Of a stretch of 64,000 nt of DNA, positions 4,497 through 56,429 are shown in pieces; the first letter of the stretch is position 1, and every line of letters begins with the position of its first letter. The notes under the pieces were generated by a model, which was given only the letters and a program-made list of their open reading frames with translations, was not told where the DNA came from and did no database searches. Location of the stretch: positions 82,564 through 146,563 of IMG/VR virus record IMGVR_UViG_3300044712_002337. One strand, 5' to 3'. The DNA is from a virus (lineage: Duplodnaviria > Heunggongvirae > Uroviricota > Caudoviricetes). The position numbers and the translations under genes are program-made.

Positions 4497-4537
4497 CTGG
4501 GCTTGTCAACGCGGCTAAAATTCACTATCTTATAAAA

Positions 4538-5412: not shown

Positions 5413-5967
5413 ATGGCGGAAGAAGACAAGCCGGAAGCCCTCCGCCTGGGCGAAGCCCTGCTCGCCCTGGAGCGGTGGGGCCGCAAGCACTACCGCTACG
5501 AAATCCACGGCGGGCCGGGCGTGATGCCGGGCGACGAGGGGTGGGTGCGGCTGTCCGCCGCGGGGCGGACGGTGACCGTCTCCCACTGCGAGATGGACCG
5601 GGGCGGGGAGGACGAGAACGGTGATGACACCACCACCCACTACGGCGACGTCGCCGACTCCATCCGCGAAGCCCTCCGCCTGTGGCACGCCGACACGACC
5701 CCGAAGCGGTTTAGTGTGACCGTGTACACGCCCGGCGGGCACCACCTTCTACCCGCGCCCGAACGGGTGAAGTATTGGGTCCACCCCGAGCAGGTCACCG
5801 TCTGGCTCGTCGCTGGAACCGAGGCCGAAGCGGTCGAGACGGCGAAAGCTCTGGTGCTGCCCAAGCTGGAAATCATCCCCCGGACGTCGGCGACCGAGAA
5901 GTGGGAGGCCGACTCCGACATGGAGCGGTATGTGCCGACCAACGTGTCGGCTACGCCGACATTTTAA
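5413..5967 (+). CDS. hypothetical protein
   Basis: 184-aa ORF; TAA stop lies inside an ACATTTTAAAAG motif. Confidence 0.5.
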   Translation: MAEEDKPEALRLGEALLALERWGRKHYRYEIHGGPGVMPGDEGWVRLSAAGRTVTVSHCEMDRGGEDENGDDTTTHYGDVADSIREALRLWHADTTPKRFSVTVYTPGGHHLLPAPERVKYWVHPEQVTVWLVAGTEAEAVETAKALVLPKLEIIPRTSATEKWEADSDMERYVPTNVSATPTF

Positions 5968-7200
5968 AAGATGTGAAGTCCACATAATTGGGTGTTTGAC
6001 GTGTACTTAACGGTTGATATCAGACTCATCGCAACGTCCGCCCAGGCGGAGTCGCTGGCCCGCACGGCGGTCGCCTTCGCCGCCGCCTGCGACCACGTGA
6101 GCGGGTACGCGTTCGAACACAAGCTATTCGGCCGGTTCGCCCTCCAGAAGGCGGTGTACCGCGACGTCCGGGAGAAGTTCGGCCTGTCCGCCCAGACGGC
6201 CTGCCTGGTCGTCGCCCGGGTGGCCGCCGCGTACAAGCGGGAGCGGGGCGTCCGCCACGAGTTCCGCCGGCCGACCGCCACCTACGACGACCGCGTCCTC
6301 GCCGTCGACCTCCCCGCCCGGACGGTCTCCGTCTGGACGGTGGACGGCCGCCTGAAGGGGGTACCGTTCGTCTGCGGGGCGCGGCAGGCCCGCCAACTGG
6401 AGGGCGAGCGGGGCGAGGCCGACCTGGTGTGCCGGGACGGGCGGTGGTACCTGCTGGTGACGGTGACCGCCCCGGAAAAGCCGCTCCGCCCGGCGACGGA
6501 CTACCTGGGGGTGGACCTCGGGGTGTACACCCTAGCGGCGGACAGCGATGGCGTCCGACACTCGGGCAAAGCGGTCAAGAGCGTCCGCCACCGCCACCGG
6601 CGGCTTCGCCGCAAACTCCAGAAGAAGAACACCAAGTCGGCCCTGCGGCGACTTCGCTTGCTGGCCGGGAAAGAAGGAAGGTTCGCTACCCATGTAAACC
6701 ACGTGTTGTCGAAAAAGTTGGTCTCGGTCGCCGAACGCACCGGCCGCGGGATTGCCCTGGAGGACCTCCGGGGTATTCGCGGGCGGATCAGGGCTAGCAG
6801 GGCGACGCGGGCTCAGCTCCACTCCTGGGCGTTCGCCCAGCTCCGGTCGTTCATCGCCTACAAGGCCGCCCTGGCGGGCGTCCCAGTGGCGGTGGTGGAC
6901 CCGGCGAACACCTCTCGCGCGTGCGCCGCTTGCGGGCACTGCGAGAAGGCCAACCGCCGCGGACGAGAGTTTCTTTGTCGCTCGTGCGGTTTTACCGCCG
7001 ACCCCGACACCAACGCGGCGGAGAACATCCGTCGGGCCGCAGTAAACCGGCCGAACGCCTGGAACGGCTCCGCCGTGGCCGGGTAAAGCTCATGACAAAA
7101 ACCTTGGGCGTTTACGTGGCCCGACTTGTCAACGCAGGGCTTATGAGTGACGGAGTAATAGTCACTCCAAGGCTACCACTTGAGAAGAGGATTAGGGGTC
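5968..7200 (+). mobile_element. IS200/IS605-family (IS1341-like, TnpA-less) element carrying tnpB copy 1; boundaries approximate
   Basis: TnpB ORF with subterminal hairpins (ATGTGaagtcCACAT upstream; GAGTGACggagtaatagTCACTC downstream, candidate omega-RNA region). Confidence 0.5.
5992..7086 (+). CDS. tnpB: TnpB (OrfB) RNA-guided nuclease, IS200/IS605 family
   Basis: RuvC-I GVDLG, RuvC-II ALEDL, C-terminal CxxC..CxxC zinc finger and RuvC-III DPDTNAAENI. Confidence 0.85.
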   Translation: MFDVYLTVDIRLIATSAQAESLARTAVAFAAACDHVSGYAFEHKLFGRFALQKAVYRDVREKFGLSAQTACLVVARVAAAYKRERGVRHEFRRPTATYDDRVLAVDLPARTVSVWTVDGRLKGVPFVCGARQARQLEGERGEADLVCRDGRWYLLVTVTAPEKPLRPATDYLGVDLGVYTLAADSDGVRHSGKAVKSVRHRHRRLRRKLQKKNTKSALRRLRLLAGKEGRFATHVNHVLSKKLVSVAERTGRGIALEDLRGIRGRIRASRATRAQLHSWAFAQLRSFIAYKAALAGVPVAVVDPANTSRACAACGHCEKANRRGREFLCRSCGFTADPDTNAAENIRRAAVNRPNAWNGSAVAG

Positions 7201-9894: not shown

Positions 9895-10130
9895 AAACCG
9901 TTAAATGGCACACGCAGGAGTACCACGTGCTCGGGCACAACTGGTACGCCCGGCACGTCGAGCGGACCGGCACCTGGCGGCTGTACTACGGGACGAACGC
10001 CAAGGGGTCGGACGTGCCCGGGTACCTGAAGGCGTTCCGCGAGGGGGGCGAACTGGTCGCCCTGCCCACCCTGGCCGCCTGCCGCGAGTACGTCCAACTG
10101 CGGGCCCGGCCCGCGAAGGCGGGCCGATGA
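9891..10130 (+). CDS. hypothetical protein, tandem paralog B
   Basis: TTG start overlapping TGA of paralog A; TVKWHTQEYHVLGHNWYAR...RLYYGTNAKGSDVPG. Confidence 0.4.
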   Translation: MKTVKWHTQEYHVLGHNWYARHVERTGTWRLYYGTNAKGSDVPGYLKAFREGGELVALPTLAACREYVQLRARPAKAGR

Positions 10131-10393
10131 CCGACACCCAGACGGAGTACTACCTGTACCTGCTCAAGCACGTCGAGGACCACGGGTACCAGCCGAGCTA
10201 CAAGGAGATGGCCGAGGTGTTCGGGGTCACCCCCAAGTCGGTGAAGGACATCTTCCTCAACCTGGAGGCCCAGGGCGTCCTGGAACTCGGGGACTATCGA
10301 CAGGAGCGGTCGATTCGGCTAAAAGGGGTGAAGTTCTGGGCGTACGACGCCCGCCTGTCCCGCCCCCCGTGCCCGAAGTGCGAGAACGCATGA
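10127..10393 (+). CDS. LexA-like winged-helix DNA-binding protein (no peptidase domain)
   Basis: ATGA overlap; YLYLLKHVEDHGYQPSYKEMAEVFGVTPKSVKDIFLNLEAQGVLEL matches LexA N-terminal wHTH pattern. Confidence 0.45.
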   Translation: MTDTQTEYYLYLLKHVEDHGYQPSYKEMAEVFGVTPKSVKDIFLNLEAQGVLELGDYRQERSIRLKGVKFWAYDARLSRPPCPKCENA

Positions 10394-10816: not shown

Positions 10817-10846
10817 GGGGGGCGAAAGCCCCCTTGTTTTTTACCG
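10817..10846 (+). terminator. intrinsic terminator
   Basis: GGGGGCgaaaGCCCCC followed by TTGTTTTTT. Confidence 0.6.
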
Positions 10847-10854
10847 CCACACAC

Positions 10855-10951
10855 CTATCTTATAAAAATGTGGGGACACCCCACAGCCCCCGCGGGCCGG
10901 TGGCCCGCATGTTAAAAGGGGAAACACACTTCCCGCGAGCGGAGCGAGCCC
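10855..10951. repeat. full-length cassette: CTATCTTATAAAAATG + 2 hairpins + ATGTTAAAAGGGGAAACAC + CGCGAGCGGAGCGAGCCC + ATG
   Basis: hairpins near-identical to copy at 1683. Confidence 0.65.
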
Positions 10952-12638: not shown

Positions 12639-13298
12639 ATGACCGTTATCGACCGGCTGAAAGCCCTCCCCCACCAGCACCCCGACTTCTCGGTGTGGCT
12701 GGAGAACGAAGACCATTACTCTTTCTATTATAAAATTTTCCAGGCCCTGAACCCGGACTCCGTCCTGGAGCTGGGCACCTGCCTGGGGTTCTCGCTGGCC
12801 GCCGCGGCGATGGCCCTGCCGGCCAAGGACCTGCACCTGTCCTGGGTGGACGACGAGTCCTACCTGCCGGGGTCGAACGAACTCGCCTGGGAGAACATCT
12901 GGGGCGTGTTCAAGGGGCGGTTCGAGGGGGAGAGCCCGTTCCACCCCCTGCGGTACTGGACCTCGCCCCCGCCGGCCGGGCGGGTGCGGGGCCTCTACCA
13001 GTTGGTCCACGTGGACGGGGACCATTCTTATGACGGGTGTCTGAAAGACCTGGAGTACGCCGAAGCCGTCCGGCCGCAAATCATCCTCGGGCACGACTAC
13101 CACCTGGAAGAGGGCGTCCGGCGGGCCGTTTCCGGGTTCTGTGCGAAGCACTCCTACGCGCACTTCGTCCTCGACCGGTTCAAGCACGGCCTGTTTTGCG
13201 TCGACCGCACCGCCCGCGCCCCGGACACCCTGTGGCGGCTGGCGGCGGCGGACGTGGGCGGGGTGCGGGTGGTCGTCCCGGGGGCCGTGGGGGCGTAG
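12639..13298 (+). CDS. class I SAM-dependent methyltransferase-like protein
   Basis: VLELGTCLGFS (motif I-like) and VHVDGDHSYD; ATG preceded by CGTGAGCGAAGCGAACTC leader. Confidence 0.5.
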   Translation: MTVIDRLKALPHQHPDFSVWLENEDHYSFYYKIFQALNPDSVLELGTCLGFSLAAAAMALPAKDLHLSWVDDESYLPGSNELAWENIWGVFKGRFEGESPFHPLRYWTSPPPAGRVRGLYQLVHVDGDHSYDGCLKDLEYAEAVRPQIILGHDYHLEEGVRRAVSGFCAKHSYAHFVLDRFKHGLFCVDRTARAPDTLWRLAAADVGGVRVVVPGAVGA

Positions 13299-13321
13299 CC
13301 CCCACATGTTAAAAGGGGAAA
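13281..13321. repeat. cassette: hairpin GTGGGGGcgtagCCCCCAC (contains upstream TAG) + ATGTTAAAAGGGGAAAGTC
   Basis: before HAD-like gene. Confidence 0.55.
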
Positions 13322-13630
13322 GTCATCAAGCGAATCGCGTTCGACATCGACGGGGTGTTGCGGCCCGAGGGCCCGGCCGGCGACCGCTACCTGCAGCGGC
13401 CGGACGTGCGGGTGCGGGAGGCGATGCGGCGGGCCAAGGCGGCCGGTCATTTCGTGATGGCGTTCACGGCCGCCCCCTGGGGGGACTACCGGCTGACGAA
13501 ACTCTGGCTGGACGAGCACGGGTTCCCCGTGGACGTCCTGATTTGCGGAAAACCTAACTACGACTGCTTCTACGACGACCGGACGGTCAACTCGCTCTCC
13601 GCCTTCGAGGAGTTCCTGGATGCCCATTAA
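13322..13630 (+). CDS. HAD-superfamily hydrolase-like protein (start codon unresolved)
   Basis: in-frame VIKRIAFDIDGVL (HAD motif I DxDGV) lies upstream of first canonical start (GTG 13355); frame opens after TAA inside ATGTTAAAAGG. Confidence 0.4.
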   Translation, partial: VIKRIAFDIDGVLRPEGPAGDRYLQRPDVRVREAMRRAKAAGHFVMAFTAAPWGDYRLTKLWLDEHGFPVDVLICGKPNYDCFYDDRTVNSLSAFEEFLDAH

Positions 13631-14375: not shown

Positions 14376-15445
14376 TTCGCCAATATACCCCCTGGGTGGC
14401 GACCAACCAGAAGAAGTATGTCAACGACTGCCTGGACGAGAACTACCTGAGTCACCGCGGGAAGTACGGGAAGCTCTTCGAGGCCGGCCTCGCGGCCGCC
14501 GCCAAGAGGAAGCACGCCGCCCTCACCGGCAGCGGCACGGCCGCCCTGTTCGCCATGTACTACGCCGAAGGGCTGGTGGGGAAACGGGTCCTGGCCCCGA
14601 CGCTCACGTACGCGGCCACGATAAATCAGCTGATTTTAATAGGTGCGACGCCGGTGCTCGTGGACTGCGACGAGCGGCACCAGATGGAGATTAACCAAGT
14701 GCGGGAGGGGCTCGCCCGGGGGTTGGCGGACGCGGTGGTGGTCGCCCCGCTCTACGGCGACGCCCCCAACATGCTCGCGTTCGAACTCGCCTGCCACGAC
14801 TTCGGCGTGCCCCTGCTCGTCGACGGGGCCCAGGCGTTCGGAGCCGACTGGAACGGACGTCCGGTGCTCAGTTATGGCCGCTCGGCCACCCTGTCCTTCT
14901 TTGCCGGGAAAACGCTCGGGACGGGGGAAGGCGGGTGCGTGTTCACTGACGACGAGGAGGTCGACCGCCGCGCCCGCGACGCGGTCAACCACAACACCTA
15001 CACGAATTACCGGCACGGCAGCCCGTACTGCACCAACTCGCGGATGACCAACCTGCAGGCGGCGGTCGGGCTGGCCCAGTTGGAGGACGCCCCCGCCATC
15101 CTGCAGAACAAGCGGCGGGTTCATACCGAGTACGCCCGCCTGCTCCCGGCCGCGGTCCTCCGCCCCCGCACGGGTCTGGCCTGGGTGAACGTCGTCCGGG
15201 TGAAGCCGGGACTCACGTACGCGGAGGTCGAGGCGGTCGCAAGAGCGGCCGGCGTGGAACTCCGCCCGATGTTCGCCCCCCTGCACACCCTGCCCGGGTA
15301 CGCCTCGCGGGTGGACACCCCGTTCCCCCTCCGGGCGAGTGAGGTGGCGGCCGCCACGCACGTCAGCCTGCCGAGCGGGCCGACCCTGACCGCGGAAGAA
15401 ATCGGCCGGGTGGCGGACGCGGTACGGCCGTTCCTGGTTGACTAA
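14372..15445 (+). CDS. DegT/DnrJ/EryC1/StrS-family PLP-dependent sugar aminotransferase
   Basis: SGTAAL and SFFAGKTLGTGEGG (PLP lysine region) motifs; ATGA overlap start. Confidence 0.75.
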   Translation: MIRQYTPWVATNQKKYVNDCLDENYLSHRGKYGKLFEAGLAAAAKRKHAALTGSGTAALFAMYYAEGLVGKRVLAPTLTYAATINQLILIGATPVLVDCDERHQMEINQVREGLARGLADAVVVAPLYGDAPNMLAFELACHDFGVPLLVDGAQAFGADWNGRPVLSYGRSATLSFFAGKTLGTGEGGCVFTDDEEVDRRARDAVNHNTYTNYRHGSPYCTNSRMTNLQAAVGLAQLEDAPAILQNKRRVHTEYARLLPAAVLRPRTGLAWVNVVRVKPGLTYAEVEAVARAAGVELRPMFAPLHTLPGYASRVDTPFPLRASEVAAATHVSLPSGPTLTAEEIGRVADAVRPFLVD

Positions 15446-15494
15446 AACTTGTCTATCTTATAAAATAACCGGACACCCCGCGAGCGGAGCGAAC

Positions 15495-16632: not shown

Positions 16633-16965
16633 CGGAGACCCCCGTGTCCCAACCACCCGACGGCAAGTGCTACTTCTGTCAGGACGACTCCGAGCCGATT
16701 GCTTTTTCGGTCGAGTTCGACACCCACGTGCACGAGGCCTGCCTGGCCGCCCAGTCGCCGGACGACGAGACGGCTGCTGCCATGCGGCGGGAGCTGTACG
16801 GAGAGCCGAACTAAAGGTGGCGTGGATGCACCTCCGCCCCGAGCTGGAGGCCCTGAAGGCGGCCGTCGTGGCCGTGTTCGTGCGGGACGCGTGCAACACC
16901 TGGTAGTGGGGGCTGGGCCCCCACACCCCCCGTGGGCCCGCGGCCCACATCACGAGGAGAAATCA

Positions 16966-17186
16966 TGCCGTTCGACAAAGAGGAGTGGGTCCAGGGGGAC
17001 TACGACGACTTCCTGGGGATGGGACCGGACGAGGTGGCCGTCGTCGAGGCCCGGGGGTTCGCCGACGAGCACGGCCCGGTGATGAGCCGGCGGGGGTGGA
17101 CCAACGCCCAGGTGAAGGCGTTCTTCCGCGAGGCCTTGCCCCGATTTCTAGATGAGTACCACCGCGGGCTACGCCCGCGATGTTAA
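16966..17186 (+). CDS. hypothetical protein
   Basis: ATG after GAGGAG SD and two GC hairpins; TAA stop inside ATGTTAAAAGG. Confidence 0.4.
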
Positions 17187-17225: not shown

Positions 17226-17495
17226 GTGTCACCCGACCTGAAGCGCCGCCTGTCCGCCGCCGTCGGCGGCGTCATCGAGGCGAACGAGGCGGCCCGCGCC
17301 GCCCACAACCGGGCGGCCGACGCCCGGGCCTGGCTGGAGCAGACGTTCGGCGACTGGACGGGGAAGGTGGTGCTGGAGCACAACGGGAAGCAGATTCTGG
17401 TCACCCGCACGAGGGACGAGGCCCGCCTCGCCCGCTGGTCTTGGGAGGAGATAGAGTCAACCACCCCACGGCTAAAGCCGGGGGCTTGCGGCTGA
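17226..17495 (+). CDS. hypothetical protein (3' end overlaps tnpB copy 2 terminus)
   Basis: GTG preceded by CCCGCGAGGGCCCCGAGCC leader variant; last ~24 nt overlap convergent tnpB. Confidence 0.35.
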   Translation: MSPDLKRRLSAAVGGVIEANEAARAAHNRAADARAWLEQTFGDWTGKVVLEHNGKQILVTRTRDEARLARWSWEEIESTTPRLKPGACG

Positions 17496-18590
17496 CGGGG
17501 CGGACCCCGTCGCCACCATAGGCCGGTTGGCGGCGGCCCGATGAGCGATGTTGAGGGCGGCGTTGTGGTCGGCATTGGCCGTGCGGGAGCACGACTTACA
17601 CCGAAACCGAACGCCCTTGCGGTTGGTTTTGGCGACGTGCCCGCAGGCGGCACACGTCTGCGAGGTGTAGGCGGGCTCGACCGCCCACACCGGCACCCCG
17701 GCGTGAATAGCCTTGTAGGTCACGAACGCCCGCAGTCGAGCGAACGACCAGGAGGAAAAAGCGTGGCGAACCGTTTTCTGAACCCGCCGCCCCCGCCGCC
17801 GAATCCCGGTCAGGTGTTCGAGGGCGATGGCGTGGTTCAGTGCCTTGGCCTTGCTCACAATCTGCGAACTGACGACGTGGTCGACGCCCTTGCGGAAGCG
17901 GGCCTCCCGCCCGCCGTTCTTCTTCAACCGCCGCTTGGCCGACTTCGTGCCGACCGCCTGGAGGGCCGCCCGGCGGCGGGCGTACCGCCCGACGACGGTT
18001 TTGTACTGGTCGTGCCCGAGGGCGGTGCCGTCCGACAGGGTGGCGAGGGTGCGGACGCCGAGGTCCACCCCGAGAACGCCGGTCGTCGGCCGCTCCGGTC
18101 CCGCGGGAACGTCGACGGCCACCGCCAGCCACCAGGACGGGCCTTCCCGGATGAGTTTCGCCTCCCGCCAGCCGTGGGCGAGCAGGGCCGCCTGGTAGTC
18201 GCCGCAGGCGAACGGGAGTTTAATCCGGCCGGCGGTCGCTGTGGTGATTCCGACCTCGCCGGACTTGCGGTCGTCGGCCGGTTTCAGCTTGAACAACCGG
18301 CAGTCCACCGGGACGGCCCCGCCCGGCTTGAACACCGGGCACCGGCGGCGGTCCCGGGCGAACACAGCGGCCGCCTTGGCCACCGCCTTGACGGCCCACT
18401 GGGCGGGCAGGCCGAACCGGTCTCGCAGGGGCCGGTAGACGAGCTTCTGCAGGCGGAACCCGTTGAACTCCTTCTCCCGGAACCCGACCGCGGCCGCCTC
18501 CGACGCGGCGGCGTTCACCGCGGCGAGGGTGGCCGTCAGCAGGGCGGCCTGCTCGGGCGTCGGTCGGAGGTGGAGGCGGACGGTTTTCAC
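17472..18590 (-). CDS. tnpB: TnpB (OrfB) RNA-guided nuclease, IS200/IS605 family, copy 2
   Basis: GTG start after AGGAG; GVDLGVRT, ALEHL, CAACGH...CKSCS zinc finger, NADHNAALNI; long ORF extension upstream rejected. Confidence 0.85.
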   Translation of the reverse strand: MKTVRLHLRPTPEQAALLTATLAAVNAAASEAAAVGFREKEFNGFRLQKLVYRPLRDRFGLPAQWAVKAVAKAAAVFARDRRRCPVFKPGGAVPVDCRLFKLKPADDRKSGEVGITTATAGRIKLPFACGDYQAALLAHGWREAKLIREGPSWWLAVAVDVPAGPERPTTGVLGVDLGVRTLATLSDGTALGHDQYKTVVGRYARRRAALQAVGTKSAKRRLKKNGGREARFRKGVDHVVSSQIVSKAKALNHAIALEHLTGIRRRGRRVQKTVRHAFSSWSFARLRAFVTYKAIHAGVPVWAVEPAYTSQTCAACGHVAKTNRKGVRFRCKSCSRTANADHNAALNIAHRAAANRPMVATGSAPSAASPRL

Positions 18591-18707: not shown

Positions 18708-19265
18708 GTGACCGAAATCTACGTGTCGACCGACGTCGAGACCGACGGGCCCATCCCGGGGCCGCACTCGATGCTCAGCTTCGGGTCCGCCGCGTTCACC
18801 GCCGAAGGCCGGATGCTGTCCACCTTCGAGGCCAACCTGGAGACCCTGCCGGGCGCGTCCGGGCACCCGGACACCATGCGGTGGTGGGAGACCCAGCCCG
18901 AGGCGTGGGCGGCCCACCGGACGGACTTGCGGACGCCCCTCGAAGCCATGACGAGGTACTCGGCCTGGCTGAAGGGGCTGCCCGGGCTGCCGGTGTTCGT
19001 GGGCTACCCGGCCGGGTTCGACTTCACCTGGATATATCATTATCTAATTATGTTTACGAATCACTCCCCGTTCTCCTTCTCGGCGGTGGACATCAAGACG
19101 TTCGCCATGTGCTTGTTGAAGAAGGACTACCGCCAGTCGACCAAGAAGAACATGCCGAAGCGGTGGTTCGGGGGCGTGAAACACTCCCACAAGGCACTGG
19201 AAGACGCCGTCGGCCAGGGGGAGCTGTTCATCAACATGCTGAAGGAAAGCCGAGGCGAGAAGTGA
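18708..19265 (+). CDS. DnaQ-like (DEDDh) 3'-5' exonuclease
   Basis: Exo [10 protein letters not shown] and Exo III H-x4-D (HKALEDA) motifs. Confidence 0.6.
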
Positions 19266-19528
19266 CCCTCTTGGATTTCGTCAGTCACATCCCCTTCCCC
19301 GACGGGGGCTTCTCCCCCAGTACCAGGGAAGAGGTACTCCAAGCCCTGAAGACGTTCTACTGCCGGTTCTTCGCGGAGGACGGGCGGGAGGGGAGCGTGT
19401 TCGACGGCGAGGTGCTGGACGCCCTGGACGCGGTCGGGCGGGCCAAGCCGGACTGCCCGGACCGGCACGCCGCCGGGCCGTGCGCCTTCTCCGAGGGGCG
19501 GTGCGTGTACTGCTGGCGGCCGAAGTGA
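19262..19528 (+). CDS. hypothetical Cys-containing protein
   Basis: GTGA overlap; 88 aa. Confidence 0.35.
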
Positions 19529-19633
19529 TTTGTCCCTTTCAACATGTGGGCCGCAGGCCCACGAGGCCGTGGGGGTGAGCCCCCACCATGTTAAAAGGAA
19601 AAATCCAACTACCCCCTGTGAGCGGAGCGAACA
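19529..19633. repeat. complete palindromic unit: TGA-TTTGTCCCTTTCAACATG + 2 hairpins + CATGTTAAAAGGAAAAATC + TGTGAGCGGAGCGAACA + GTG
   Basis: left and right arms are reverse complements. Confidence 0.65.
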
Positions 19634-20233
19634 GTGACGGAGCGAGACGCCTTCTTGGCCGCCATCCGGGCGACGCCCGACGACGACCTGCCCCGTCTTG
19701 TGTTCGCCGACTGGTTGGACGAGAACGGGCAGCCGGACCACGCAAGAGCCATCCGACACTACATCCACCGCCGCACGGTCCACACGAGTGCGGCGGGGTA
19801 CCCCGCCGAGTTGTGGTTGTTGGAGGGGGAAGACGGGTGGGCCAAGGAGATTGCTCCGGCTGTCCCGGGGGTGGCGTACACCGTCCGCCGCGGGTTCGTC
19901 AGCGGCGTCGAATGCCGGTGGGCTGACTGGTTCGGCTGGCCATGCTCATGCGAGGCTCGCGACCGGCGGTGCGATGGCGGGTGTACGGGCGGACGCATCG
20001 GCCGCGGTCCCGAATTGGTGAGGACCCACCCGATTGAGCGGGTCCGTTTTAGTGATGTCACCCCGCTCTCCGTTCACAACCCCACCGGCCCTCCGTACTG
20101 GACCCAGGGGCTGTACCCGCATTTAGTCCCGTGGGGGTACGCCCCGCTCACCTTCGAGAGTCCCGAGGCGGCGGAGGAGGCCACCTCCCGGCAGGCGCTG
20201 GCCTGGGCGCGGGGGCACCCCCCTTGTACTTAA
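19634..20233 (+). CDS. TIGR02996-type repeat-companion domain protein (paralog 2)
   Basis: MTERDAFLAAIRATPDDDLPRLVFADWLDENGQPDHARAIR; GTG preceded by TGTGAGCGGAGCGAACA. Confidence 0.55.
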   Translation: MTERDAFLAAIRATPDDDLPRLVFADWLDENGQPDHARAIRHYIHRRTVHTSAAGYPAELWLLEGEDGWAKEIAPAVPGVAYTVRRGFVSGVECRWADWFGWPCSCEARDRRCDGGCTGGRIGRGPELVRTHPIERVRFSDVTPLSVHNPTGPPYWTQGLYPHLVPWGYAPLTFESPEAAEEATSRQALAWARGHPPCT

Positions 20234-20259: not shown

Positions 20260-20544
20260 GTGACATCCCACTGCCTAGACCTGTTGGCCGAGACGGTCCT
20301 CACCCTGCCCCAGGCGGCGGCGGTGCTGGCGGTCGACGCCGCCACCGTCGGGCGGTACGTGCGGGCGGGCCGGCTGGAGGGGGTGCGGGTGGGCGGGCGG
20401 TGGAAGACCAGCCGGGAGGCGGTCGCCCGGTTCCTGGCCGGCACCCAGCCGCGGGCGAAAGCCGACCCGCCCGCCCGGACGCCCGCCGGCCGCCGCGGGG
20501 AGAAGGCCCTCGCCCGGCTGCGGGCGATGGGGGTGAAGGTCTAG
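20260..20544 (+). CDS. excisionase-like / AlpA-type HTH DNA-binding protein
   Basis: LTLPQAAAVLAVDAATVGRYVRAGRLEGVRVGGRWKTSREAV winged-helix pattern; divergent from integrase. Confidence 0.5.
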   Translation: MTSHCLDLLAETVLTLPQAAAVLAVDAATVGRYVRAGRLEGVRVGGRWKTSREAVARFLAGTQPRAKADPPARTPAGRRGEKALARLRAMGVKV

Positions 20545-21758
20545 CCCGACTTCTTGGCGGCGTCGACCGCGTCCTTGTCCACCGGCCGCGAATACCGCTC
20601 GGTCGTCCGGGCGTTCTTGTGCCCGAGCAGCTTCTGGGCGACGTCCAGCCCGTGCTCGCCCCGGAACTCCACCCCGGCGGCGTGCCGCAGCTGGTTGCTG
20701 GTCCACTTCGCCACCCCCGCCCGCCCGCACGCCCGCTCGATGGCCTGGTTGTACGTCGCCGTCGTGTACCACAGCCCGACCCGGGCGGACGGCCCCTTCT
20801 CCGCCTGCTGCCGCTCCTTCACCTGGGACGGGTACCTCGGCCGCCGCTCGGCCCGCCGCCGGGCGAGCTGCTCGCGGGCGGAGGTGCGGGGGCGGAACAC
20901 CGGCAGGTCGGGCTCGGCCCAGTCCAGGTACGGGGCGAGCACCGCCTGGGCGGCGGGGCCGACGTACACCTCCCGCGTCTCCCCGGCGTGCGCCCGCTTG
21001 TGCCGGTCCGGCCGGAACACCCACACCGCGGCCCCGCGGTCAATCAGGCCGGGCGTCAGCCCGCACACGTCCTGCGGGCGGCACCCGGTCAGCCGGTGGA
21101 ACCGCACCATGGCGGCGACGGTCGGGGTGAGGTGCGGGAGGGTGGCCTCCACGTCCGCGTCGCCCACCGCCTCGACCGTCCGCTGCTCGGGGGCCCTCGT
21201 CTTCCCCTTCTTCAGCCCGTCCACGCTCCGCAGCTGGAACCACTTGCCGGCGGGCACCAGCTCCATCTTCTCCCCCCACCGGAACACCGCCCGCACCCGC
21301 CGCGCCTGGGCGTTCACGTGCTCGCGGGTCCACCCCTTGGCCACCATCGCGTCCCGCACGCGGATGAGCGCCCGCGGCCCGAACTCGGCGGCCGGGTCGA
21401 GCGGGCAGACGGTGCACAGCACCCCGACGGCCGCCTTGTAGTACTTCGTCTCCGACGCCGAGTACCCGACCAGCTCGGCCGCCAGGAACGCCTCGGCCAG
21501 TTCGGCCACGCACACCCCGCCCTTGGGCGGCCGCGCCGGCCCGGGCGGGGCGGGGGGCGGGGCGGGCGGGGCGTCGGGGTGCCCGGCCCGCCACTCGGCC
21601 AGGAACGCCTGGTACGCCGCCTTCGACTCCTCGCTCCCGTACCGGCCCAGGTACACCCGCACCCGGTCCCCCTTCTGTTCGTCGTACACGAAAACGAACG
21701 CCCGGTCGGTGGCGCGGTGGCGGCGGTAGGTGGGGACGACGTTGCGGGGTCGGGACAC
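20541..21758 (-). CDS. int: tyrosine recombinase / phage integrase
   Basis: C-terminal catalytic region LRHAAGVEFRGEHGLDVAQKLLGHKNARTTERYS (R..H-x-x-R..Y). Confidence 0.85.
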   Translation of the reverse strand: MSRPRNVVPTYRRHRATDRAFVFVYDEQKGDRVRVYLGRYGSEESKAAYQAFLAEWRAGHPDAPPAPPPAPPGPARPPKGGVCVAELAEAFLAAELVGYSASETKYYKAAVGVLCTVCPLDPAAEFGPRALIRVRDAMVAKGWTREHVNAQARRVRAVFRWGEKMELVPAGKWFQLRSVDGLKKGKTRAPEQRTVEAVGDADVEATLPHLTPTVAAMVRFHRLTGCRPQDVCGLTPGLIDRGAAVWVFRPDRHKRAHAGETREVYVGPAAQAVLAPYLDWAEPDLPVFRPRTSAREQLARRRAERRPRYPSQVKERQQAEKGPSARVGLWYTTATYNQAIERACGRAGVAKWTSNQLRHAAGVEFRGEHGLDVAQKLLGHKNARTTERYSRPVDKDAVDAAKKSG

Positions 21759-22183: not shown

Positions 22184-23072
22184 TCACGGGCGAGCGGAGC
22201 GAGCCCAAGAAAGGAGCCCCTCCGAAACCCAAGACGTCGCCTCGGCGGCGGTCGCGGCGCCGACGTAACGACTGGTGAACGAGTGTTCCCTGGAAGATGA
22301 GTCCGCCAGGCCGGCCCTCAGAACGCACTCGAACACGTCGGCCGGCAGGACGGCCGACTCCGGTACGCCGTCGCTCGGCCGGGGCCGGTCTGCCGAATAG
22401 AAGCAGTAGTACCGCCCGTTCCAGTGCGGGGCCCGGTCGGTCGCCCGCACCGACTCGACCGGGTGGGCCCGCGCGACCCCCGGTCCGAGGCCGGGGGTGA
22501 ACAGGGTGGGCACCCGCCGGGTGCCGGGGCGGTCCATCCGGGACACCTCCGCCGTCTCCCACGTCCCGTACCAGTCGGCGAACCGGCACACCGCCGCGCG
22601 GACGAACCCGCGGCGCCAGAACAGTCCCTCCCCGCTCTCGTCCCGGCCCTGTCCAATTCTCTGCGGGACACCTCTGGTCTCCACCCAGGTGTGGTCCAGC
22701 AGGTGCCGCAGGGCCCGGTCGTCCAGGCCGAACGCACAGTTCGGGTCCGGGCAGTCCCGCCGGGACCAGGCGGAGCACTCCCGGCACGGCGTACACCGGG
22801 CGGCGTGGACTTGGGTTCGGATGAAGTCCGCCCTCGCGGCGTTCGCGTTCGGGGCAACCGCCTTGCCGCGGCAAACCCCGCACTCGTGCCCCCAAACCGG
22901 CTGGGTCACCCCGAGCCGCCGGGACAAGTCACAGACGCCCGTCCCGCCGCACTTCTCGCACCGCGTCGCGGCGGCGTTCTCGTCCAACCAGTCCGCGTAC
23001 ACCAGGCGTTCGAGGTCCGACGCCGGGTTGGCCCGGATGGCGGCGAGCAGGGCTTCTTCCTCGGTCATGCGT
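22184..23072 (-). CDS. TIGR02996-type repeat-companion domain protein (paralog 3), Cys-rich
   Basis: MTEEEALLAAIRANPASDLERLVYADWLDE; ATG preceded by GTGAGCGGAGCGAACGC; longer ORF start rejected. Confidence 0.55.
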
Positions 23073-26395: not shown

Positions 26396-27640
26396 ACGAC
26401 CGCCGGCTTCAGCCGGCGGCTTTGTGCCTCAGCGGTCTGGGCACTGATATGGGTGGTTTACGGCACCCCTAGCCGCGATGTTGCGCGCGGCGTTCTGGTC
26501 GGCGTGGGCGGCGTGCCCGCACGACGTACAGGAGAAGCGGTCTTGGGACTTCCGGCTCGCCTTGTCGATGTGCCCGCAGGCGAAGCACGTCCGCGACGTG
26601 TTGCGGGGGTCCACCGCCACCAGCGGCACCCCGGCCAACTTCGCCTTGTAGGTGAGGCAGTGCCGGAGGTGGTGGAACGCCCAGTTGGACAGCCGGGAGC
26701 GGTGCCGCGTGCGAACCGTTTTCTCCGTCCTGGTGCGGACGCCGTTGAGGTCTTCGACGGCGATACCCACGCCCAGACGGAGTGCCTTGGCGACAACCGT
26801 TTTGGAGATGCGGTGGTTCTCCCCCTTTTGGTAACGGGACTGCTTACCGGCGAGCGCCTTCAGCCGCCGCTTGGCGGACTTGGTTCCCCGGCGTTGGAAG
26901 CTTTGACGGGCCTTCAGGTGCCGCTTGCGGTGGCGTTCCACGTCCGCCCCGGTGTGCCGCTCGCCCTCGGAATCGGTGAGGACGTTGGCGATGCCCAAAT
27001 CCACCCCGAGGAAGGCCGACACCTCGGCGGCGGGCGGTTCGGGCACGTCGGCGGTGCAGTACAGGAAGAACTTCCCCCCGCGGTACACCAAGTCGGCCTG
27101 CCCCTTGAGGGCGTGCAGCGTGCCCGTGAAGTAGTCGCCGGCCACGTAGGGCACCAAAATCCGCCCGCCCATCGTGAGCAGGCTCACCCGGTCGACGCCC
27201 TTGAAGGAGAACGTCCGCTGGTCGTAGGTGACAGCCCCCAGGGGTTTGAACACCGGGCACTGGGTCTTGTCGCGGGCGAAGCACTCGACCGCCTTGCCGA
27301 TGGCGCGGACGGCGGTCTGCGAGGACACGCCGAACGTGTCCCGGAGGGCGCGGTAGCAGAGCTTGTGGATGGACGGCTGGGAGAACACCCGGTTCTCAAA
27401 CCCCACCCGCGCCGCTTCGGTGGCGGCGGCGTTGAAGGCCCGCATGTACGCGAGCAGGGCTGGCGCTTGCCCGGCGTCCGGCAGCAGTTTGATTTGCACG
27501 ACGAGTTTCACGACGGCATTTTAGGATGCCGTTTGTCCGTAATCAACCCCGGAGAGCGGCTTACCTCTGTCGCCTGAAGGCGACAGTCTCACGCCGCGAA
27601 TTTATGAGAGCGGGCTGTCGCCCGCATGTTAAAAAGGAAA
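26396..27640 (-). mobile_element. IS200/IS605-family element carrying tnpB copy 3; boundaries approximate
   Basis: 5' subterminal hairpins CTGTCGCCttcaGGCGACAG and GGCATcctaaaATGCC; 3' hairpin GCCGCCGGCTgaaGCCGGCGG. Confidence 0.5.
26429..27511 (-). CDS. tnpB: TnpB (OrfB) RNA-guided nuclease, IS200/IS605 family, copy 3
   Basis: GVDLGIANV, AVEDL, CFACGH...CTSCG zinc finger, HADQNAARNI. Confidence 0.85.
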   Translation of the reverse strand: MKLVVQIKLLPDAGQAPALLAYMRAFNAAATEAARVGFENRVFSQPSIHKLCYRALRDTFGVSSQTAVRAIGKAVECFARDKTQCPVFKPLGAVTYDQRTFSFKGVDRVSLLTMGGRILVPYVAGDYFTGTLHALKGQADLVYRGGKFFLYCTADVPEPPAAEVSAFLGVDLGIANVLTDSEGERHTGADVERHRKRHLKARQSFQRRGTKSAKRRLKALAGKQSRYQKGENHRISKTVVAKALRLGVGIAVEDLNGVRTRTEKTVRTRHRSRLSNWAFHHLRHCLTYKAKLAGVPLVAVDPRNTSRTCFACGHIDKASRKSQDRFSCTSCGHAAHADQNAARNIAARGAVNHPYQCPDR

Positions 27641-30925: not shown

Positions 30926-30995
30926 TGCTCGCTCCGCTCGCAAGAAGAGTACGGTTTTCACCTTTTCAAAATTCGGCCCGCAGGGCCAAGAGGCG
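30926..30995. repeat. cassette (minus strand): hairpin GGCCCtgcGGGCC + GAATTTTGAAAAGGTGAAAACC + GCGAGCGGAGCGAGCA + ATG Confidence 0.55.
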
Positions 30996-34486: not shown

Positions 34487-34553
34487 GTCGGAGGTAAGGG
34501 AGTCGAACACCTTCCACCCGGGTTATGAGCCCGGGGCGAGCACCGGCCCACCT
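34487..34553 (-). ncRNA. tRNA-like element with CAT anticodon stem-loop (CCGGG-CTCATAA-CCCGG), non-canonical D/T arms
   Basis: acceptor GGAGGTG/TACCTCC with G-U; anticodon loop canonical; T-arm fails. Confidence 0.25.
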
Positions 34554-34575
34554 CCGCCGTCACGTCAACACCCGC

Positions 34576-34603
34576 ATATTAACTGTTTTTATAAAGTAGT
34601 CAA
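34576..34603 (-). promoter_or_regulatory. sigma-70-like promoter driving the tRNA-like RNAs / downstream operon
   Basis: minus strand TTGACT -N16- TAATAT. Confidence 0.5.
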
Positions 34604-34690
34604 CACGACTTCGTCGTGATTTTAAAAGGGGTGACTCACACGGGCGATTTTCCTCTTTTAACAGGCGGGCCCCGCCCGCGGGGTGTCCCC
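34604..34690. repeat. composite cassette: GATTTTAAAAGGGGTGACTCA ... GATTTTCCTCTTTTAACAG + hairpins GCGGGCcccGCCCGC / GCGGGGtgtCCCCGC after dnaE-C stop Confidence 0.5.
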
Positions 34691-34691: not shown

Positions 34692-37190
34692 CTAAATCTG
34701 CCAAAACTCCGTCGCCACGAACCCGTCCCCCCGCCGGGACGGCTCCAGCGCCACCTGCAGCACGTTGCCGTCCCGCAGGAGGGCGCGGTGTTTCTCATAA
34801 TCGTCAGGAAAACAGACGATTTCGTTGAGCGAGCCCGACTCGTCGCCCAGGGTGAGCCAGGCCATGTCCCGCCCCTTCTTGGTGCGGAACGCCCGCGAGC
34901 TTTTCAGGACGGCGCACACGCGGACCTTCTCCTTGCGGCCGTCGAGCAGGTCCTTGATGGGGGCGGTGCGGCCGGACACGTCGGCCCCGGCCAGCTTGGT
35001 GTAGGTGACGGGCACCCCCAGGGCCTTCTCCTCCAGCTCGGCAATCACCCGGGGCGTGTCCGCCTCGCTCGTGGGCGGGTGGTCCAGGAGGTAGGCTTCG
35101 TCCAGGAGGTCCTGAGTCGTGTTTTTGTTGGCGGCGGCGCCGCCCTCCTTCTTCGGCCTGGCAGCCGAACGAATTAGCTCCGCCAGGCTATCGGCTTCAC
35201 CCGCGTGGCTGACCAGCCACGCATGGACGGTCTTCTTGGACTTCAGCCGCGCCACGCACTTGGCCTCGTTCGCCTGACGTAACCGCGGCACCGAAAAGTG
35301 GGCGAACGCCCCCGCGTAGGCGAGCCCCTCCATCACTTTAACGGGCACGGTCGTGCCGACCTTCAGCAGGAAGTGGGTCCAGGTCCAGTCGGACAAAGGC
35401 TTTCCGCTCGACTCCTCTTCGGCTTGGATGGCCTCGACCATCTTTTCCACGTGCCCGTCCCCCACCCCGCTCACGTCGCACAGCCCGAACACGGCCGCGT
35501 CCCCGTCCAGGTCCACGCGGGCCGAGCGGGTGCGGACGTCGGGCGACCGAACCTTAATGTTCGCGGAGCGGGCGTCGTTCACCAGGAGGGACGCCTCCTC
35601 CTCGCACCCCTTCTTCTTCCCCTTGAGGAAGGCCAGGGCGAGCCAGTTGGCGTAGAAGGCGAGGGGGAAGTGGGCCTTCAGGTAGGCGGTCTTCACCGCC
35701 TTACACCCGTACGAATAAGCGTGGCTGTTGCAGACCACCAGCCCGTCGTTCACCACGAAGTTGTGGTTCGGGGCGTCCATAGTCACATCGTACGTCTCGC
35801 ACTCGCCGTCCGGCTCCACCGACACCACCCGCGTTTCCACCCGCGGGGCTCCCTTCTCCCCCCGCTTCACCCGCCCGCAGGCGTACTCCTTCTTCTTGTG
35901 GCAGGAGACGCACAGGAGTTGCAGGTTCTCGGGCTCATTGTTCGAGCGGTCGCCGTCGATGTGGTCCATCTCCAGGCGGCCCTCGGTCTTGCCGCACAGT
36001 TCGCACACCTTCGCCTTGGTCGCCTTCACCGCCTTAAACGAGGTGAACCCGCCGCCGGTGTACGCGTAGTTGTTCTCGCCGAACGCCCCGTTCACGAACC
36101 GGCCTTCCACGTACGGTCGGGTCTCGTTCGTGTACTTGCTGAAGTTGTACCGCTTCCCGTTCCCCTTCTCGTACTCCCCGCGGCGGAACACGACGACCTC
36201 CATCCCGAGCAACACCCGCCGGGCGATTTCAGCCACCGTCAGTTCGCCATCGGTGGTCGGCACCTTATGGTTGCCCGTCAGGCGGACTGACTGACCATCG
36301 GAGGTCGTGAGCCGGAACACCGGGCGGTAGCCGGCCGGCTGGATGTCGCGGATGAGGTTCGGGCGGACCCGCCCGTCCTCGCACATGGACAGCCCCTGGC
36401 CGTAGTGGCCAAGCCGCATCCACTTCCGGCGGAGCACGTCGTGCCCGTGTTTTTGGGCGTACCGGATGTCGTTCCGGATGCGGTACATGTGGCCGACCGT
36501 GTAGCCCACCCCCTTCACCTGCCCGCCCGTGCCGTACCGGACAATAATCGTATCCTCTGACGCGCACTTATTAAATGAGTACCGTGCCGACTCCTGAATC
36601 CAGTCGAACAACTGGACGGCGAGTTCGTAGGGGACGGCCCCGTACTCTTTGGCCCGCTCCAGGAACTTAAGTCGAGTGTCTGCCATGAGCTGCGCATCCT
36701 TCTTCCCGGCTGCCTTCCGTAGGAGCTGCGCCTCGGCTTTAGAAAAACCCGCAACCACTTCCGACAACTTGCAAATCTGTTCTTGAAAGACGACGACGTT
36801 GTAAGTCTTTGCCAGTACTTCATCTACGACGGGGTGTAGAGACTCCGTCTGCTCGTCCCCGTTCTTGCGGAGGACGTAGTGCTCCGTCATCGACACTCCA
36901 TTACTATCACGAGCTTTTAAACAACCGGGCCGGAGCAGACTAACGAGCGCACAGATGTGTTCCTCGTTCTCCGGCTTCAACATCTTGGACCACTTCTGGC
37001 CGAGGTACTCCTCCAGCTGGAACACCCCCTTGGTCTGCCCGTGCGCGAACAGGTTCGCCACCGCCGAGCAGAACGGGGCCTTGCGGATGTCCACGTCCAG
37101 GGCCGGCAGCCCGCCCGGGTAGGCCGGCGGCCCCACGACCGGCCAGGAGCACCCGCATTTTTTAAAGTGGTAAATTTCGTTCGTAGGCAC
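34692..37190 (-). CDS. dnaE: DNA polymerase III alpha (DnaE) C-terminal half with inserted HNH intein
   Basis: GVFQLE, VVFQEQ, FNK|C...intein...N|SHAYSYGCKAVKTAYLKAHFP; GTG start. Confidence 0.8.
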   Translation of the reverse strand: MPTNEIYHFKKCGCSWPVVGPPAYPGGLPALDVDIRKAPFCSAVANLFAHGQTKGVFQLEEYLGQKWSKMLKPENEEHICALVSLLRPGCLKARDSNGVSMTEHYVLRKNGDEQTESLHPVVDEVLAKTYNVVVFQEQICKLSEVVAGFSKAEAQLLRKAAGKKDAQLMADTRLKFLERAKEYGAVPYELAVQLFDWIQESARYSFNKCASEDTIIVRYGTGGQVKGVGYTVGHMYRIRNDIRYAQKHGHDVLRRKWMRLGHYGQGLSMCEDGRVRPNLIRDIQPAGYRPVFRLTTSDGQSVRLTGNHKVPTTDGELTVAEIARRVLLGMEVVVFRRGEYEKGNGKRYNFSKYTNETRPYVEGRFVNGAFGENNYAYTGGGFTSFKAVKATKAKVCELCGKTEGRLEMDHIDGDRSNNEPENLQLLCVSCHKKKEYACGRVKRGEKGAPRVETRVVSVEPDGECETYDVTMDAPNHNFVVNDGLVVCNSHAYSYGCKAVKTAYLKAHFPLAFYANWLALAFLKGKKKGCEEEASLLVNDARSANIKVRSPDVRTRSARVDLDGDAAVFGLCDVSGVGDGHVEKMVEAIQAEEESSGKPLSDWTWTHFLLKVGTTVPVKVMEGLAYAGAFAHFSVPRLRQANEAKCVARLKSKKTVHAWLVSHAGEADSLAELIRSAARPKKEGGAAANKNTTQDLLDEAYLLDHPPTSEADTPRVIAELEEKALGVPVTYTKLAGADVSGRTAPIKDLLDGRKEKVRVCAVLKSSRAFRTKKGRDMAWLTLGDESGSLNEIVCFPDDYEKHRALLRDGNVLQVALEPSRRGDGFVATEFWQI
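35727..36566 (-). mobile_element. intein (Hint + HNH endonuclease) in DnaE at the FNK/SHA site
   Basis: block A CASEDTIIV, block B TGNH, HNH HIDGDRSNNEPENLQLLCVSCH, C-terminal NHNFVVNDGLVVCN followed by Ser. Confidence 0.7.
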
Positions 37191-39177: not shown

Positions 39178-39215
39178 GGGGGTATTCTAGCCGAGGATTA
39201 GTTTTTGTAAAGTAG

Positions 39216-39602
39216 TCATTTCTGATGGGAAACCCACTCCCACATCGCGTCCCGGGCGGCCTGGTAATAGTCTTTCTTCACCCGCTCGTACCGCCCGCAC
39301 GCCGGCCACGACTCCAGCATGGCGTCGACCATCCGCAGCCACGTCGAAACCTGCCCCACGGTCAAGTCGTGGGCGAACTCCAGCTTGTGCAGGCGGCTGT
39401 CCAGCCAGCCGTCGTACCCGCCGTCGCACTCGAACCAGGAAACGCCCGCGCCGAGCAGCCGGTCGACGGACTCCAGGTACGAATGACGATTCACCCCGTC
39501 GGCCTGCCACTCCGCCCACGGCCGGGTCAGCACCCGCGGGTCGATATCTTCTCGCCCCGGCCACCAACACCCCGTCGGGGCCGGGACGCGGATGTCAATC
39601 AT
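39216..39602 (-). CDS. hypothetical protein
   Basis: 128-aa Trp-rich ORF. Confidence 0.45.
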   Translation of the reverse strand: MIDIRVPAPTGCWWPGREDIDPRVLTRPWAEWQADGVNRHSYLESVDRLLGAGVSWFECDGGYDGWLDSRLHKLEFAHDLTVGQVSTWLRMVDAMLESWPACGRYERVKKDYYQAARDAMWEWVSHQK

Positions 39603-42009: not shown

Positions 42010-42020
42010 GCTCGCTCCGC

Positions 42021-43315: not shown

Positions 43316-43357
43316 GTTTTTATAAGATAGGTGTTATTCGGGCGGGCGTCAAGGGGG

Positions 43358-56415: not shown

Positions 56416-56429
56416 TTGTTCGCGACGCT

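Follow-up and report, generated by a model that had tools for sequence, protein, structure and literature searches.

The palindrome at positions 19526-19607 of a 64,000-nucleotide stretch of viral DNA (Caudoviricetes; IMG/VR record IMGVR_UViG_3300044712_002337, positions 82,564 to 146,563; the whole stretch is called the window below) probably arose where two independent copies of a gene-boundary module meet head to head. Each module consists of a single AT-rich box, about 21 nt long, abutting one perfect GC-rich hairpin; one copy follows the stop codon of the upstream gene, the other precedes the start of the downstream gene. The original prediction, made from the sequence of this intergenic region, had taken the palindrome for a complete unit of roughly 70 nt, resembling a miniature inverted-repeat transposable element (MITE) or a bidirectional regulatory site, and the single-arm copies found elsewhere for half-sites. 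An intergenic regulatory role is indeed plausible, but the bidirectional two-arm unit does not stand as an element, and the hierarchy of the modules has to be reversed.

Structure of the palindrome

Reading the + strand from 19300 to 19900, we located all the elements that had been listed in the original prediction, that is a TGA, a T-rich arm, two hairpins, an A-rich arm, a linker, a leader and a GTG. They are given here with the two flanking genes:

19262-19528, + strand: upstream gene, 88 aa, called independently on an identical Logan contig
19526-19528, + strand: stop codon TGA, which closes the upstream gene
19526-19546, + strand: L box, gene-end copy, TGATTTGTCCCTTTCAACATG; its T-rich strand is the sense strand and it starts at the stop codon
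19529-19546, + strand: left arm, TTTGTCCCTTTCAACATG, T-rich
19546-19562: hairpin 1, GTGGGCC-gca-GGCCCAC, perfect 7-bp stem and 3-nt loop, abutting the L box
19563-19568: spacer GAGGCC between the two modules
19569-19586: hairpin 2, GTGGGGG-tgag-CCCCCAC, perfect 7-bp stem and 4-nt loop, abutting the R box
19587-19605, + strand: right arm, CATGTTAAAAGGAAAAATC, A-rich
19587-19607, - strand: R box, gene-start copy, reading CATGTTAAAAGGAAAAATCCA on the + strand; its T-rich strand is the minus strand
19608-19616, + strand: C-rich linker, ACTACCCCC
19617-19633, + strand: leader, TGTGAGCGGAGCGAACA, 17 nt, with GGAG 7 nt before the start codon and its end 0 nt before GTG
19634-20233, + strand: downstream gene, 199 aa, starting with GTG at 19634, with an N-terminal TIGR02996 (Gemmata "repeat-companion") domain

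The independent gene calls were taken from a Logan contig of SRR26046407 (0 mismatches in 19,560 nt, offset 1448). The upstream gene has no Pfam or NCBIfam match, and no relative of its open reading frame (ORF) was found in viral contigs. The TIGR02996 domain of the downstream gene scores 59.8 bits in NCBIfam (E = 1.6e-16, cut-off 29).

The arms do form an imperfect inverted repeat as predicted: a repeat finder returned 19530-19546 and 19587-19603 as a 17-nt inverted repeat, 14/17 (82%) complementary, with 40 nt between the arms. Both stems are perfect and 7 bp long; as a small correction, the second loop is made of 4 nt (tgag) and not of 3. With the position weight matrix (PWM) of the family described below, the L box scores 29.0 and departs from the consensus at 3 positions; the R box scores 34.7 and is close to the consensus. 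The right arm has 4 matches at up to 3 mismatches, against 0.00 expected. No Rfam family was found in the whole window at gathering thresholds, and a promoter scan of 19400-19700 gave no promoter-like site, the sole one between 10 and 24 kb being at 15438-15466.

A family of single modules

Alignment of the boxes gives the consensus TGAyTTTCCCCTTTTAAMAT, which is worth about 32 bits and has nine nearly invariant positions. Scanning the window with the PWM (21 positions) yielded 42 matches, or about 36 distinct sites in 64 kb, against 0-2 per shuffle (about 0.2 over 20 shuffles). The arm core CCTTTTAA[C/A]AT (CCTTTTAAMAT) has 32 matches at one mismatch or less, all but one (31/32) intergenic. 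The existence of single-arm copies elsewhere was thus borne out by the scan. More than 30 single boxes are conserved at least as well as the two boxes of 19526-19607.

In 30 of the roughly 36 copies, a hairpin begins 0-2 nt past the final AT of the box, and it is always the ...AAMAT end that touches the hairpin. This means that the box is not a bare half-site: each single-arm copy is a complete unit, a box with its own hairpin. The hairpins are perfect Watson-Crick palindromes in 27 of 33 cases, mostly with a 7-bp stem and a 3-nt loop. Their sequences vary from copy to copy (stems GTGGGCC, GCGGCCC, CACGGGG, GAGCGGC and others, sharing a loose pattern G[CT]GGG[GC]C), while the box is invariant. 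The box is also under an orientation-dependent constraint: CCC stands before TTTT in 16 of 17 L copies, against 4 of 12 strict R copies (p = 9e-4).

Position of the modules relative to codons

The modules follow a placement rule: the T-rich strand of the box is always turned toward the nearest coding region and the hairpin away from it. The two orientations are equally frequent, with 17 L and 17 R copies. On the sense strand the L form reads stop codon, box, hairpin, the box starting between -4 and +4 nt from the stop codon in the 17 copies. The R form reads hairpin, ATGTTAAAAGGRGAAA, start codon, and its box carries AAAGGRG at Shine-Dalgarno distance. The distance from the end of the 21-mer to the start codon is -4 to +3 nt in eight R copies; in five others the start codon lies 20-30 nt further on, and a C-rich linker and a leader occupy the interval. 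The order R box, linker, leader seen before 19634 is also found upstream of the genes starting at 10952, 17226, 30925(-) and 56414(-).

Starts deduced from R boxes match independently called gene starts, for instance at 1741, 32389, 32781 and 50546. Where a gap has no box, a plain GAGGAG or AAGGAG stands at the position of the R box; in 16815-16964, for example, one reads hairpin, hairpin, ATCACGAGGAGAAATC, ATG. The gap 10817-10951 contains, in order, a U-tract terminator, the promoter-like motif CTATCTTATAAAA, two hairpins, an R box, a leader and an ATG. The R module lies there inside the 5' untranslated region (UTR), and it serves that gene neither as promoter nor as terminator.

Neighboring boxes alternate in orientation (R, L, R, L): this is so for 10 of 10 pairs among the 11 sites of the plus block, and for 25 of 31 pairs overall (binomial p = 4e-4, window positions 1721-61089). 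The alternation may reflect a bracketing of expression units or, equally, a selection against direct repeats, which are prone to deletion.

Upstream genes can extend into a module. The stop codon TAG of the gene 12639-13298 falls in the loop and stem of a module hairpin (13287-13305), and the genes 16965-17186 and 5413-5967 end with a TAA inside an R box (17184-17186 and 5965-5967), so that the hairpin is coding there. The ORF that follows the R box 13305-13325 (window positions 13316-13354) encodes ...IKRIAFDIDGVL, with a HAD-like DxDG motif and a weak LNS2 match (E = 0.08), and this coding stretch precedes the first canonical start, the GTG called at 13355. Translation may begin in this case at a non-canonical ATC, 0-9 nt past the box.

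The two-arm arrangement occurs at chance frequency

We took a census of 66 co-directional gaps with independent gene calls, the 19526 gap being just outside this set. Boxes are present in 21 of the 36 gaps of at least 30 nt. An L box occurs in 9 gaps and an R box in 13; both occur in 1 of the 66 gaps, against 1.8 expected. Left and right arms therefore do not co-occur more often than expected, two-arm gaps arise at chance frequency, and what had been called a complete palindromic unit is a gap holding one gene-end copy and one gene-start copy.

Two other arrangements deserve mention:

56414-56532, - strand: the only other gap of the same layout, with TAA, L box, hairpin, hairpin, degenerate R box, linker, leader, ATG
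34618-34665, - strand: the inverse arrangement, an "empty module", with hairpin, R box, GTG-TGA, L box, hairpin

The degenerate R box of the first is GGTAAAAGGAAACATTCC and lies 8 nt off its hairpin. The second would be a mini-ORF made of a start and a stop, or else the scar left where a gene was lost; behind it come a strong promoter-like TTGACT-17-TAATAT (34557-34617) and then a tRNA-Met (34487-34556).

In the 19526 unit the right arm is consensus-like, and the three deviations of the left arm have no compensation in the right arm. Hence the arms do not appear to have been selected to pair; their complementarity would follow from both being copies of a single consensus. The same argument was applied by Pope et al. 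to the repeats of mycobacteriophages to which we return below (PMC3203893). A check of the A/C variant in neighboring L and R copies revealed no covariation.

The RNA of 19526-19607 (82 nt) folds at -37 kcal/mol (z = -3.8), with the arms paired in both the minimum free energy (MFE) structure and the centroid. Most of this energy comes from the two hairpins: with the left arm forced open the segment still reaches -29.8 kcal/mol, which leaves no more than about -7 kcal/mol for the pairing of the arms, or about -3.6 when DNA parameters are used.

Restriction to one phage lineage

The window (69% GC) is part of a large phage-like genome of about 176 kb, uncultured, whose nearest polymerase relative is 58% identical while catalogued phages reach at most about 32%. 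In the relatives with 50-58% identity in the DNA polymerase III alpha subunit the box is absent, and hairpins after stop codons are present; the nearest one has the layout stop, hairpin, Shine-Dalgarno, start without any AT-rich box. The relatives of the N-terminus of the gene at 19634 are found only in Gemmataceae (Fimbriiglobus, Gemmata, Frigoriglobus), and the host is therefore probably a member of this family. No box was found in 276 kb of Gemmataceae DNA, and scans with the exact pattern gave 0 matches in a viral collection and 0 in a genome collection. A metagenome collection gave 3 matches, in contigs of 32-59% GC with no further copies, which we attribute to chance. From these scans, the box is confined to this phage lineage.

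A model for the modules

We propose that the left copy (stop, box, hairpin) closes the gene 19262-19528, and that the right copy (hairpin, box), together with the C-rich linker and the leader, makes up the 5' UTR of the TIGR02996 gene. The hairpins would be stem-loops insulating or stabilizing the transcripts, like those that follow the stop codons of the relatives. As the conservation of the box far exceeds what base composition or ribosome binding would need, we infer that it is the recognition site of a sequence-specific factor, most likely encoded by the phage. In the R orientation, AAAGGRG would in addition serve as a Shine-Dalgarno sequence within an A-rich translation-initiation region. 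Since the box-less gaps and the nearest relative have a plain Shine-Dalgarno sequence at that place, the R box would be an elaborated translation-initiation region. The leader would act like the start-associated sequences of Cluster K mycobacteriophages. The modules as a whole would be punctuation signals of expression, the R copies doubling as ribosome-binding sites.

A factor reading duplex DNA would explain why the consensus is identical in both orientations. Roles at the RNA level fit the position relative to codons; they need either two functions or the complementarity of L and R to keep a single consensus. G.U asymmetry in the hairpins does not separate the two levels, since the stems are perfect Watson-Crick palindromes and the relatives have hairpins of this kind too.

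Several points weigh against this model. The census of boxes covers 64 of the approximately 176 kb of the phage genome, and the function given to the modules is deduced from their position only. At 19587-19607 itself the start codon is 29 nt away from the R box, and it is the GGAG of the leader that stands at Shine-Dalgarno distance instead. The L hairpin is not a canonical terminator, as no U tract follows it on either strand. The significant alternation of orientations is not predicted. A factor reading duplex DNA would leave unexplained, by itself, both the fixed end of the box at the hairpin and the stricter CCC of the L copies, and a factor acting on RNA would meet different RNAs in L and R. 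We also rejected a masking of the next ribosome-binding site by the L box, which would have provided translational coupling: at 10 of 11 sites the two pair with a probability of about 0, and forced opening of the box leaves the accessibility unchanged.

Other readings of the palindrome

An operator dedicated to a dimeric DNA-binding protein, which would bind both arms and for which single arms would be weak half-sites, seems unlikely to us. Arms of 17-20 nt that are 82% complementary agree with it, and so do the single consensus common to the L and R sets and the presence nearby of a phage integrase and of small helix-turn-helix (HTH) proteins (HTH_17 at 20260-20544, a LexA-like winged HTH at 10127-10393). 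Operators with multiple sites are known in temperate phages of high-GC hosts (PMC3203893; PMC4351075). But the chance frequency of two-arm gaps does not favor such a site, nor do arms standing 40 nt apart with two unrelated hairpins between them, nor the second unit, whose right arm is degenerate and displaced. Moreover the more than 30 single boxes are no less conserved, and each is tied to its own hairpin.

Slightly less credible is an RNA superstructure of the polycistronic mRNA, in which the arms would close a three-way junction and form an RNase III-type processing site or a switch opened by the ribosome, coupling translation of the downstream gene to termination at the UGA 19526. The left arm starts at the stop codon and, given the known footprint of the ribosome, would be unwound by a terminating one; the R box looks like a Shine-Dalgarno sequence, and the L box like an anti-Shine-Dalgarno sequence. 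The stability of the fold and the pairing of the arms in the MFE and centroid structures, reported above, also go in this direction. However, the arm pairing of about -7 kcal/mol includes three uncompensated mismatches, the real ribosome-binding site (GGAG in the leader) stays unsequestered, and its accessibility does not change when the L box is opened, either here or at 9 of 10 other L sites. Most L and R copies have no local partner, and the A/C variants of neighbors do not covary.

About as improbable is a network of RNA-RNA interactions extending over the phage genome, in which L modules would pair with R boxes, in trans or across a block of genes. By analogy with small RNAs derived from 3' UTRs, the L module would then consist of a G-free, C/U-rich seed, CCCUUUUAAMAU, and of a stable hairpin. 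Pairing with the complementary, A/G-rich R boxes that carry ribosome-binding sites would time translation or define mRNA ends capped by hairpins. If true, the network would explain the shared consensus, the strict CCC in L only and the alternating orientations.

We give still less weight to the idea that the modules are intergenic joints for the exchange of cassettes, the palindrome being the junction of two bracketed cassettes. The alternation of orientations (25/31, p = 4e-4) does bracket blocks of 1-4 genes by inverted copies, the "empty" bracket 34618-34665 holds only GTG-TGA, and the phage encodes RecA-like and PD-(D/E)XK proteins. There is also a precedent in the promoter early stem-loops (PeSLs) of T4-type phages (PMC2839356), but these are direct repeats with sigma-70 promoters; here the repeats are inverted, which would lead to inversion rather than excision, and no promoter is predicted in the 19526 unit. 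Core replication genes are flanked as often as accessory genes, and the alternation fits equally well if direct repeats, being prone to deletion, are selected against.

A mobile or copy-paste element, whether a MITE, an element akin to the repetitive extragenic palindromes (REP) and their doublets (REPIN), or a derivative of IS200/IS605, with the two-arm form as the intact element, is very improbable. Many copies in both orientations, inverted arms flanking the unit, boxes and hairpins always together, and three TnpB (IS605 OrfB) genes in the window, along with the loose stem pattern G[CT]GGG[GC]C, could suggest it. Yet there are no target-site duplications: the longest word shared by the flanks of 27 modules averages 3.63 nt, against 3.57 nt in mismatched controls (p = 0.41), and no direct repeat is common to the flanks of either two-arm unit. 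Differing hairpins beside an invariant box are the opposite of what recent copying would leave. The position is fixed at stop and start codons, and no copies were found outside this phage in relatives, host loci or three public collections. No Y1/RAYT (REP-associated tyrosine transposase) or DDE transposase occurs among the Pfam matches of the window genes, and the TnpB copies have diverged to about 70% identity in patches. The suggested resemblance to a MITE is not upheld, given the missing duplications, an interior that is not conserved, the absence of copies elsewhere and a position fixed to codons.

Finally, the least probable reading is that the unit is a transcription terminator working in both directions or a recombination site like the attC of integrons: two strong GC hairpins do stand between co-directional genes, and the 9 nt after each (AUGUUAAAA) would make a weak RNA:DNA hybrid in a 69% GC genome, but the layout (T-rich, hairpin, A-rich) is the mirror image of a bidirectional terminator with no U tract on either strand, and the terminator scan lists neither hairpin although it found true U-tract terminators elsewhere in the window; as to attC, the arm words TTTCAAC and GTTAAAA each match 6 of 7 positions of the attC core sites RYYYAAC and GTTRRRY and a tyrosine recombinase gene lies 1 kb downstream, but this recombinase (20541-21758) scores 16.7 bits on TIGR02249, for which the integron integrase cut-off is 265, and most sites are one-armed and in both orientations (17 L and 17 R), unlike attC arrays.

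The leader

With up to 3 mismatches allowed, the leader TGTGAGCGGAGCGAACA has 10 copies in the window, where 0.2 would be expected. The matches rise to 31 with a looser pattern (about 8.5 expected), 12 of them in sense orientation with a start codon 0-3 nt downstream. Two further copies, at 37-53 and 42527-43, bring the family to about 14 members, upstream of unrelated genes, with the consensus YGYGAGCGGAGCGAAC. Its GGAG is 6-9 nt from the start codon, and the conservation reaches well beyond GGAG. Most leaders lie downstream of an L or R module; among the approximately 14, two arms are present at 2 and the R arm alone at 5. A 3-bp mini-stem around the leader, sought by eye, can pair in 11 of 14 copies against about 9.5 expected, which is not significant.

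A leader-like copy was found at 18476-18497 of L008, a locus of a relative with 52% polymerase identity, upstream of a gene. Hence the leader motif occurs beyond this phage while the box does not. The same locus (18411-18500) shows a canonical U-tract terminator and then TGAGCGTAGCGAAGCAGCGAAC-ATG. In the host loci no leader copy stands beside a start codon.

Metagenome-assembled genomes of Fimbriiglobus and other Planctomycetia contain inverted pairs of repeats, GTGCTCTGCTCGCTCCGCGAGCGG...CCGCTCGCGGAGCGAGCAGAGCAC, which form long REPIN-like hairpins (L055 2930-2974 and 5837-6031, L047 2936-2979, L032 4561-4648). This host repeat shares 12 nt (GCGGAGCGAGCA) with the leader variants 30926-30942 and 42009-42025, and in L047 and L055 it lies 25-30 nt upstream of host TIGR02996 genes. 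The overlap may be due to chance, or may point to the origin of the leader.

Comparison with known systems

[quoted passage not shown] In Cluster K mycobacteriophages the SAS is an asymmetric motif of 13-17 nt with GGAG, a few nt upstream of many starts; it has a single orientation, is absent from the host and is specific to one phage lineage (PMC3203893). Some SAS are preceded by ESAS, imperfect inverted repeats of 17 nt separated by 4-13 nt, with uncompensated deviations (PMC3203893). Our leader is likewise asymmetric, contains GGAG, is found in sense only at 0-3 nt from starts, and is linked to a lineage, but its sequence, GAGCGGAGCGAAC, is unrelated to the SAS sequence GGGATAGGAGCCC, from which it differs by more than 2 mismatches. 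The arms share with ESAS the length of 17 nt and the uncompensated deviations from the consensus; they differ in standing 40 nt apart instead of 4-13 nt, with GC hairpins between them, and in being mostly single, each with its own hairpin, half of them at stop codons. The host is probably a planctomycete here and is an actinobacterium for Cluster K. We thus regard the leader and the arms as an analogue of SAS and ESAS, not as a member of that group.

The PeSLs of T4-type phages are in direct orientation, and a functional sigma-70 promoter is part of them (Arbiol et al. 2010; PMC2839356). As with our modules, one finds in the intergenic space an AT-rich stretch that holds the stop codon, next a G...C-rich stem-loop, and last a Shine-Dalgarno sequence with the start codon, in many copies flanking small genes. 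The phage module differs in having no -35/-10 pair and in being mirror-oriented, the promoter-like CTATCTTATAAAA being separate from it.

The stoperators of L5 and Cluster A phages and the sites of Cluster O phages are also tens of short conserved sites in the short intergenic spaces of temperate phages. Stoperators have one orientation relative to transcription, whereas our box is split between 17 L and 17 R copies. In Cluster O the sites are 17-bp palindromes made of a 7-bp inverted repeat and a 3-bp spacer (PMC4351075). Those palindromes are invariant, while in our phage it is the flanking box that does not change and the palindromes that vary.

REP, BIME and REPIN are extragenic palindromes found after stop codons, single or in inverted pairs, with alternating neighbors and a single-stranded motif beside the hairpin. 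The phage modules resemble them in all these respects: they stand after stops, are single or paired, alternate, and have a conserved motif by the hairpin. But REP hairpins are conserved within each family and linked to a RAYT, while those of the phage differ from one another and no RAYT was seen in the window; furthermore, doublets are not enriched in the phage and half of the copies are at gene starts. With MITEs such as Correia elements, the phage unit has in common that it is short, non-coding, intergenic, bounded by terminal inverted repeats and present in many copies; it differs by the lack of target-site duplications, the unconserved interior, the position fixed by codons and the restriction to one phage.

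Promoter-like motifs and neighboring genes

The motif CTATCTTATAAAA occurs in 7 copies, against 0.02 expected, all in sense orientation and preceded by TTGACn-like hexamers:

4525-4537, 10855-10867, 15453-15465 and 43318-43330(-): copies of CTATCTTATAAAA
23982-23994(-), 34587-34599(-) and 55945-55957(-): weaker copies

In two gaps an ATG follows 0-2 nt after the motif (4538 and 43315), which suggests a class of promoters giving leaderless mRNAs. Similar leaderless-like layouts are TTTACA-17-TAGAAT-ACCCCC-ATG at 39178-39215 and TTGATT-16-TAACAT-GCCCCC-ATG at 51038-51096. U-tract terminators were found by the terminator scan at 10817-10843 and 22160-22129. That the box itself is a promoter was rejected: it has no -35 hexamer at 17 bp, half of its copies are antisense, and there are separate promoter-like motifs (TTGACn-17-TAAAAT; CTATCTTATAAAA). 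A -1 frameshift site (CCCUUUU, 5 nt and a hairpin) was rejected as well, the site being past the stop codon.

The window encodes a split DNA polymerase III alpha subunit, DnaB, a Toprim primase, a RecA-like protein and a PD-(D/E)XK protein, together with a class II ribonucleotide reductase, ThyX, a Dam-type methylase, sugar-modifying enzymes, a tyrosine recombinase, three TnpB proteins and one tRNA-Met. The two polymerase genes, 34692-37190(-) and 39595-41616(-), are about 2.4 kb apart, and the one for the C-terminal part has an intein-splicing/HNH insertion, which the shorter homologues of the relatives (609, 550 and 818 aa) lack. The TnpB genes (IS605 OrfB/Cas12f-like TNB) are at 6001-7086(+), 17472-18590(-) and 26429-27511(-) and are about 70% identical in patches; one lies inside the block of genes ending at the 19526 gap, and the window showed no TnpA. 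An HTH_17 (excisionase-like) gene, 20260-20544(+), which lies about 0.7 kb downstream of the 19526 unit, is convergent with the tyrosine recombinase gene 20541-21758(-). A second gene with a TIGR02996 domain, 22184-23068(-), is preceded by an L box, three hairpins and a leader. These genes may form a module for lysogeny or for interaction with the host.

Significance

The 19526 feature is a single junction among the many gene-boundary signals of a dense system that is specific to this phage. This system has an unusually explicit intergenic grammar (stop, optional T-rich box, one or several GC hairpins, optional A-rich box, optional leader, start), in which a box of 32 bits serves gene ends and gene starts in mirror orientation. 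For the scanning of genomes, the lesson is that two adjacent oriented motifs which happen to form a palindrome should not be labelled a transposon. We know of no work on the expression signals of phages infecting Planctomycetes, and where phages are uncultured, their gene regulation is approached mainly through dense intergenic motifs specific to a lineage. If the reader of the box were found, it would give a second independent example of the SAS/ESAS kind of system, so far unexplained, and would provide portable expression parts for Gemmataceae.

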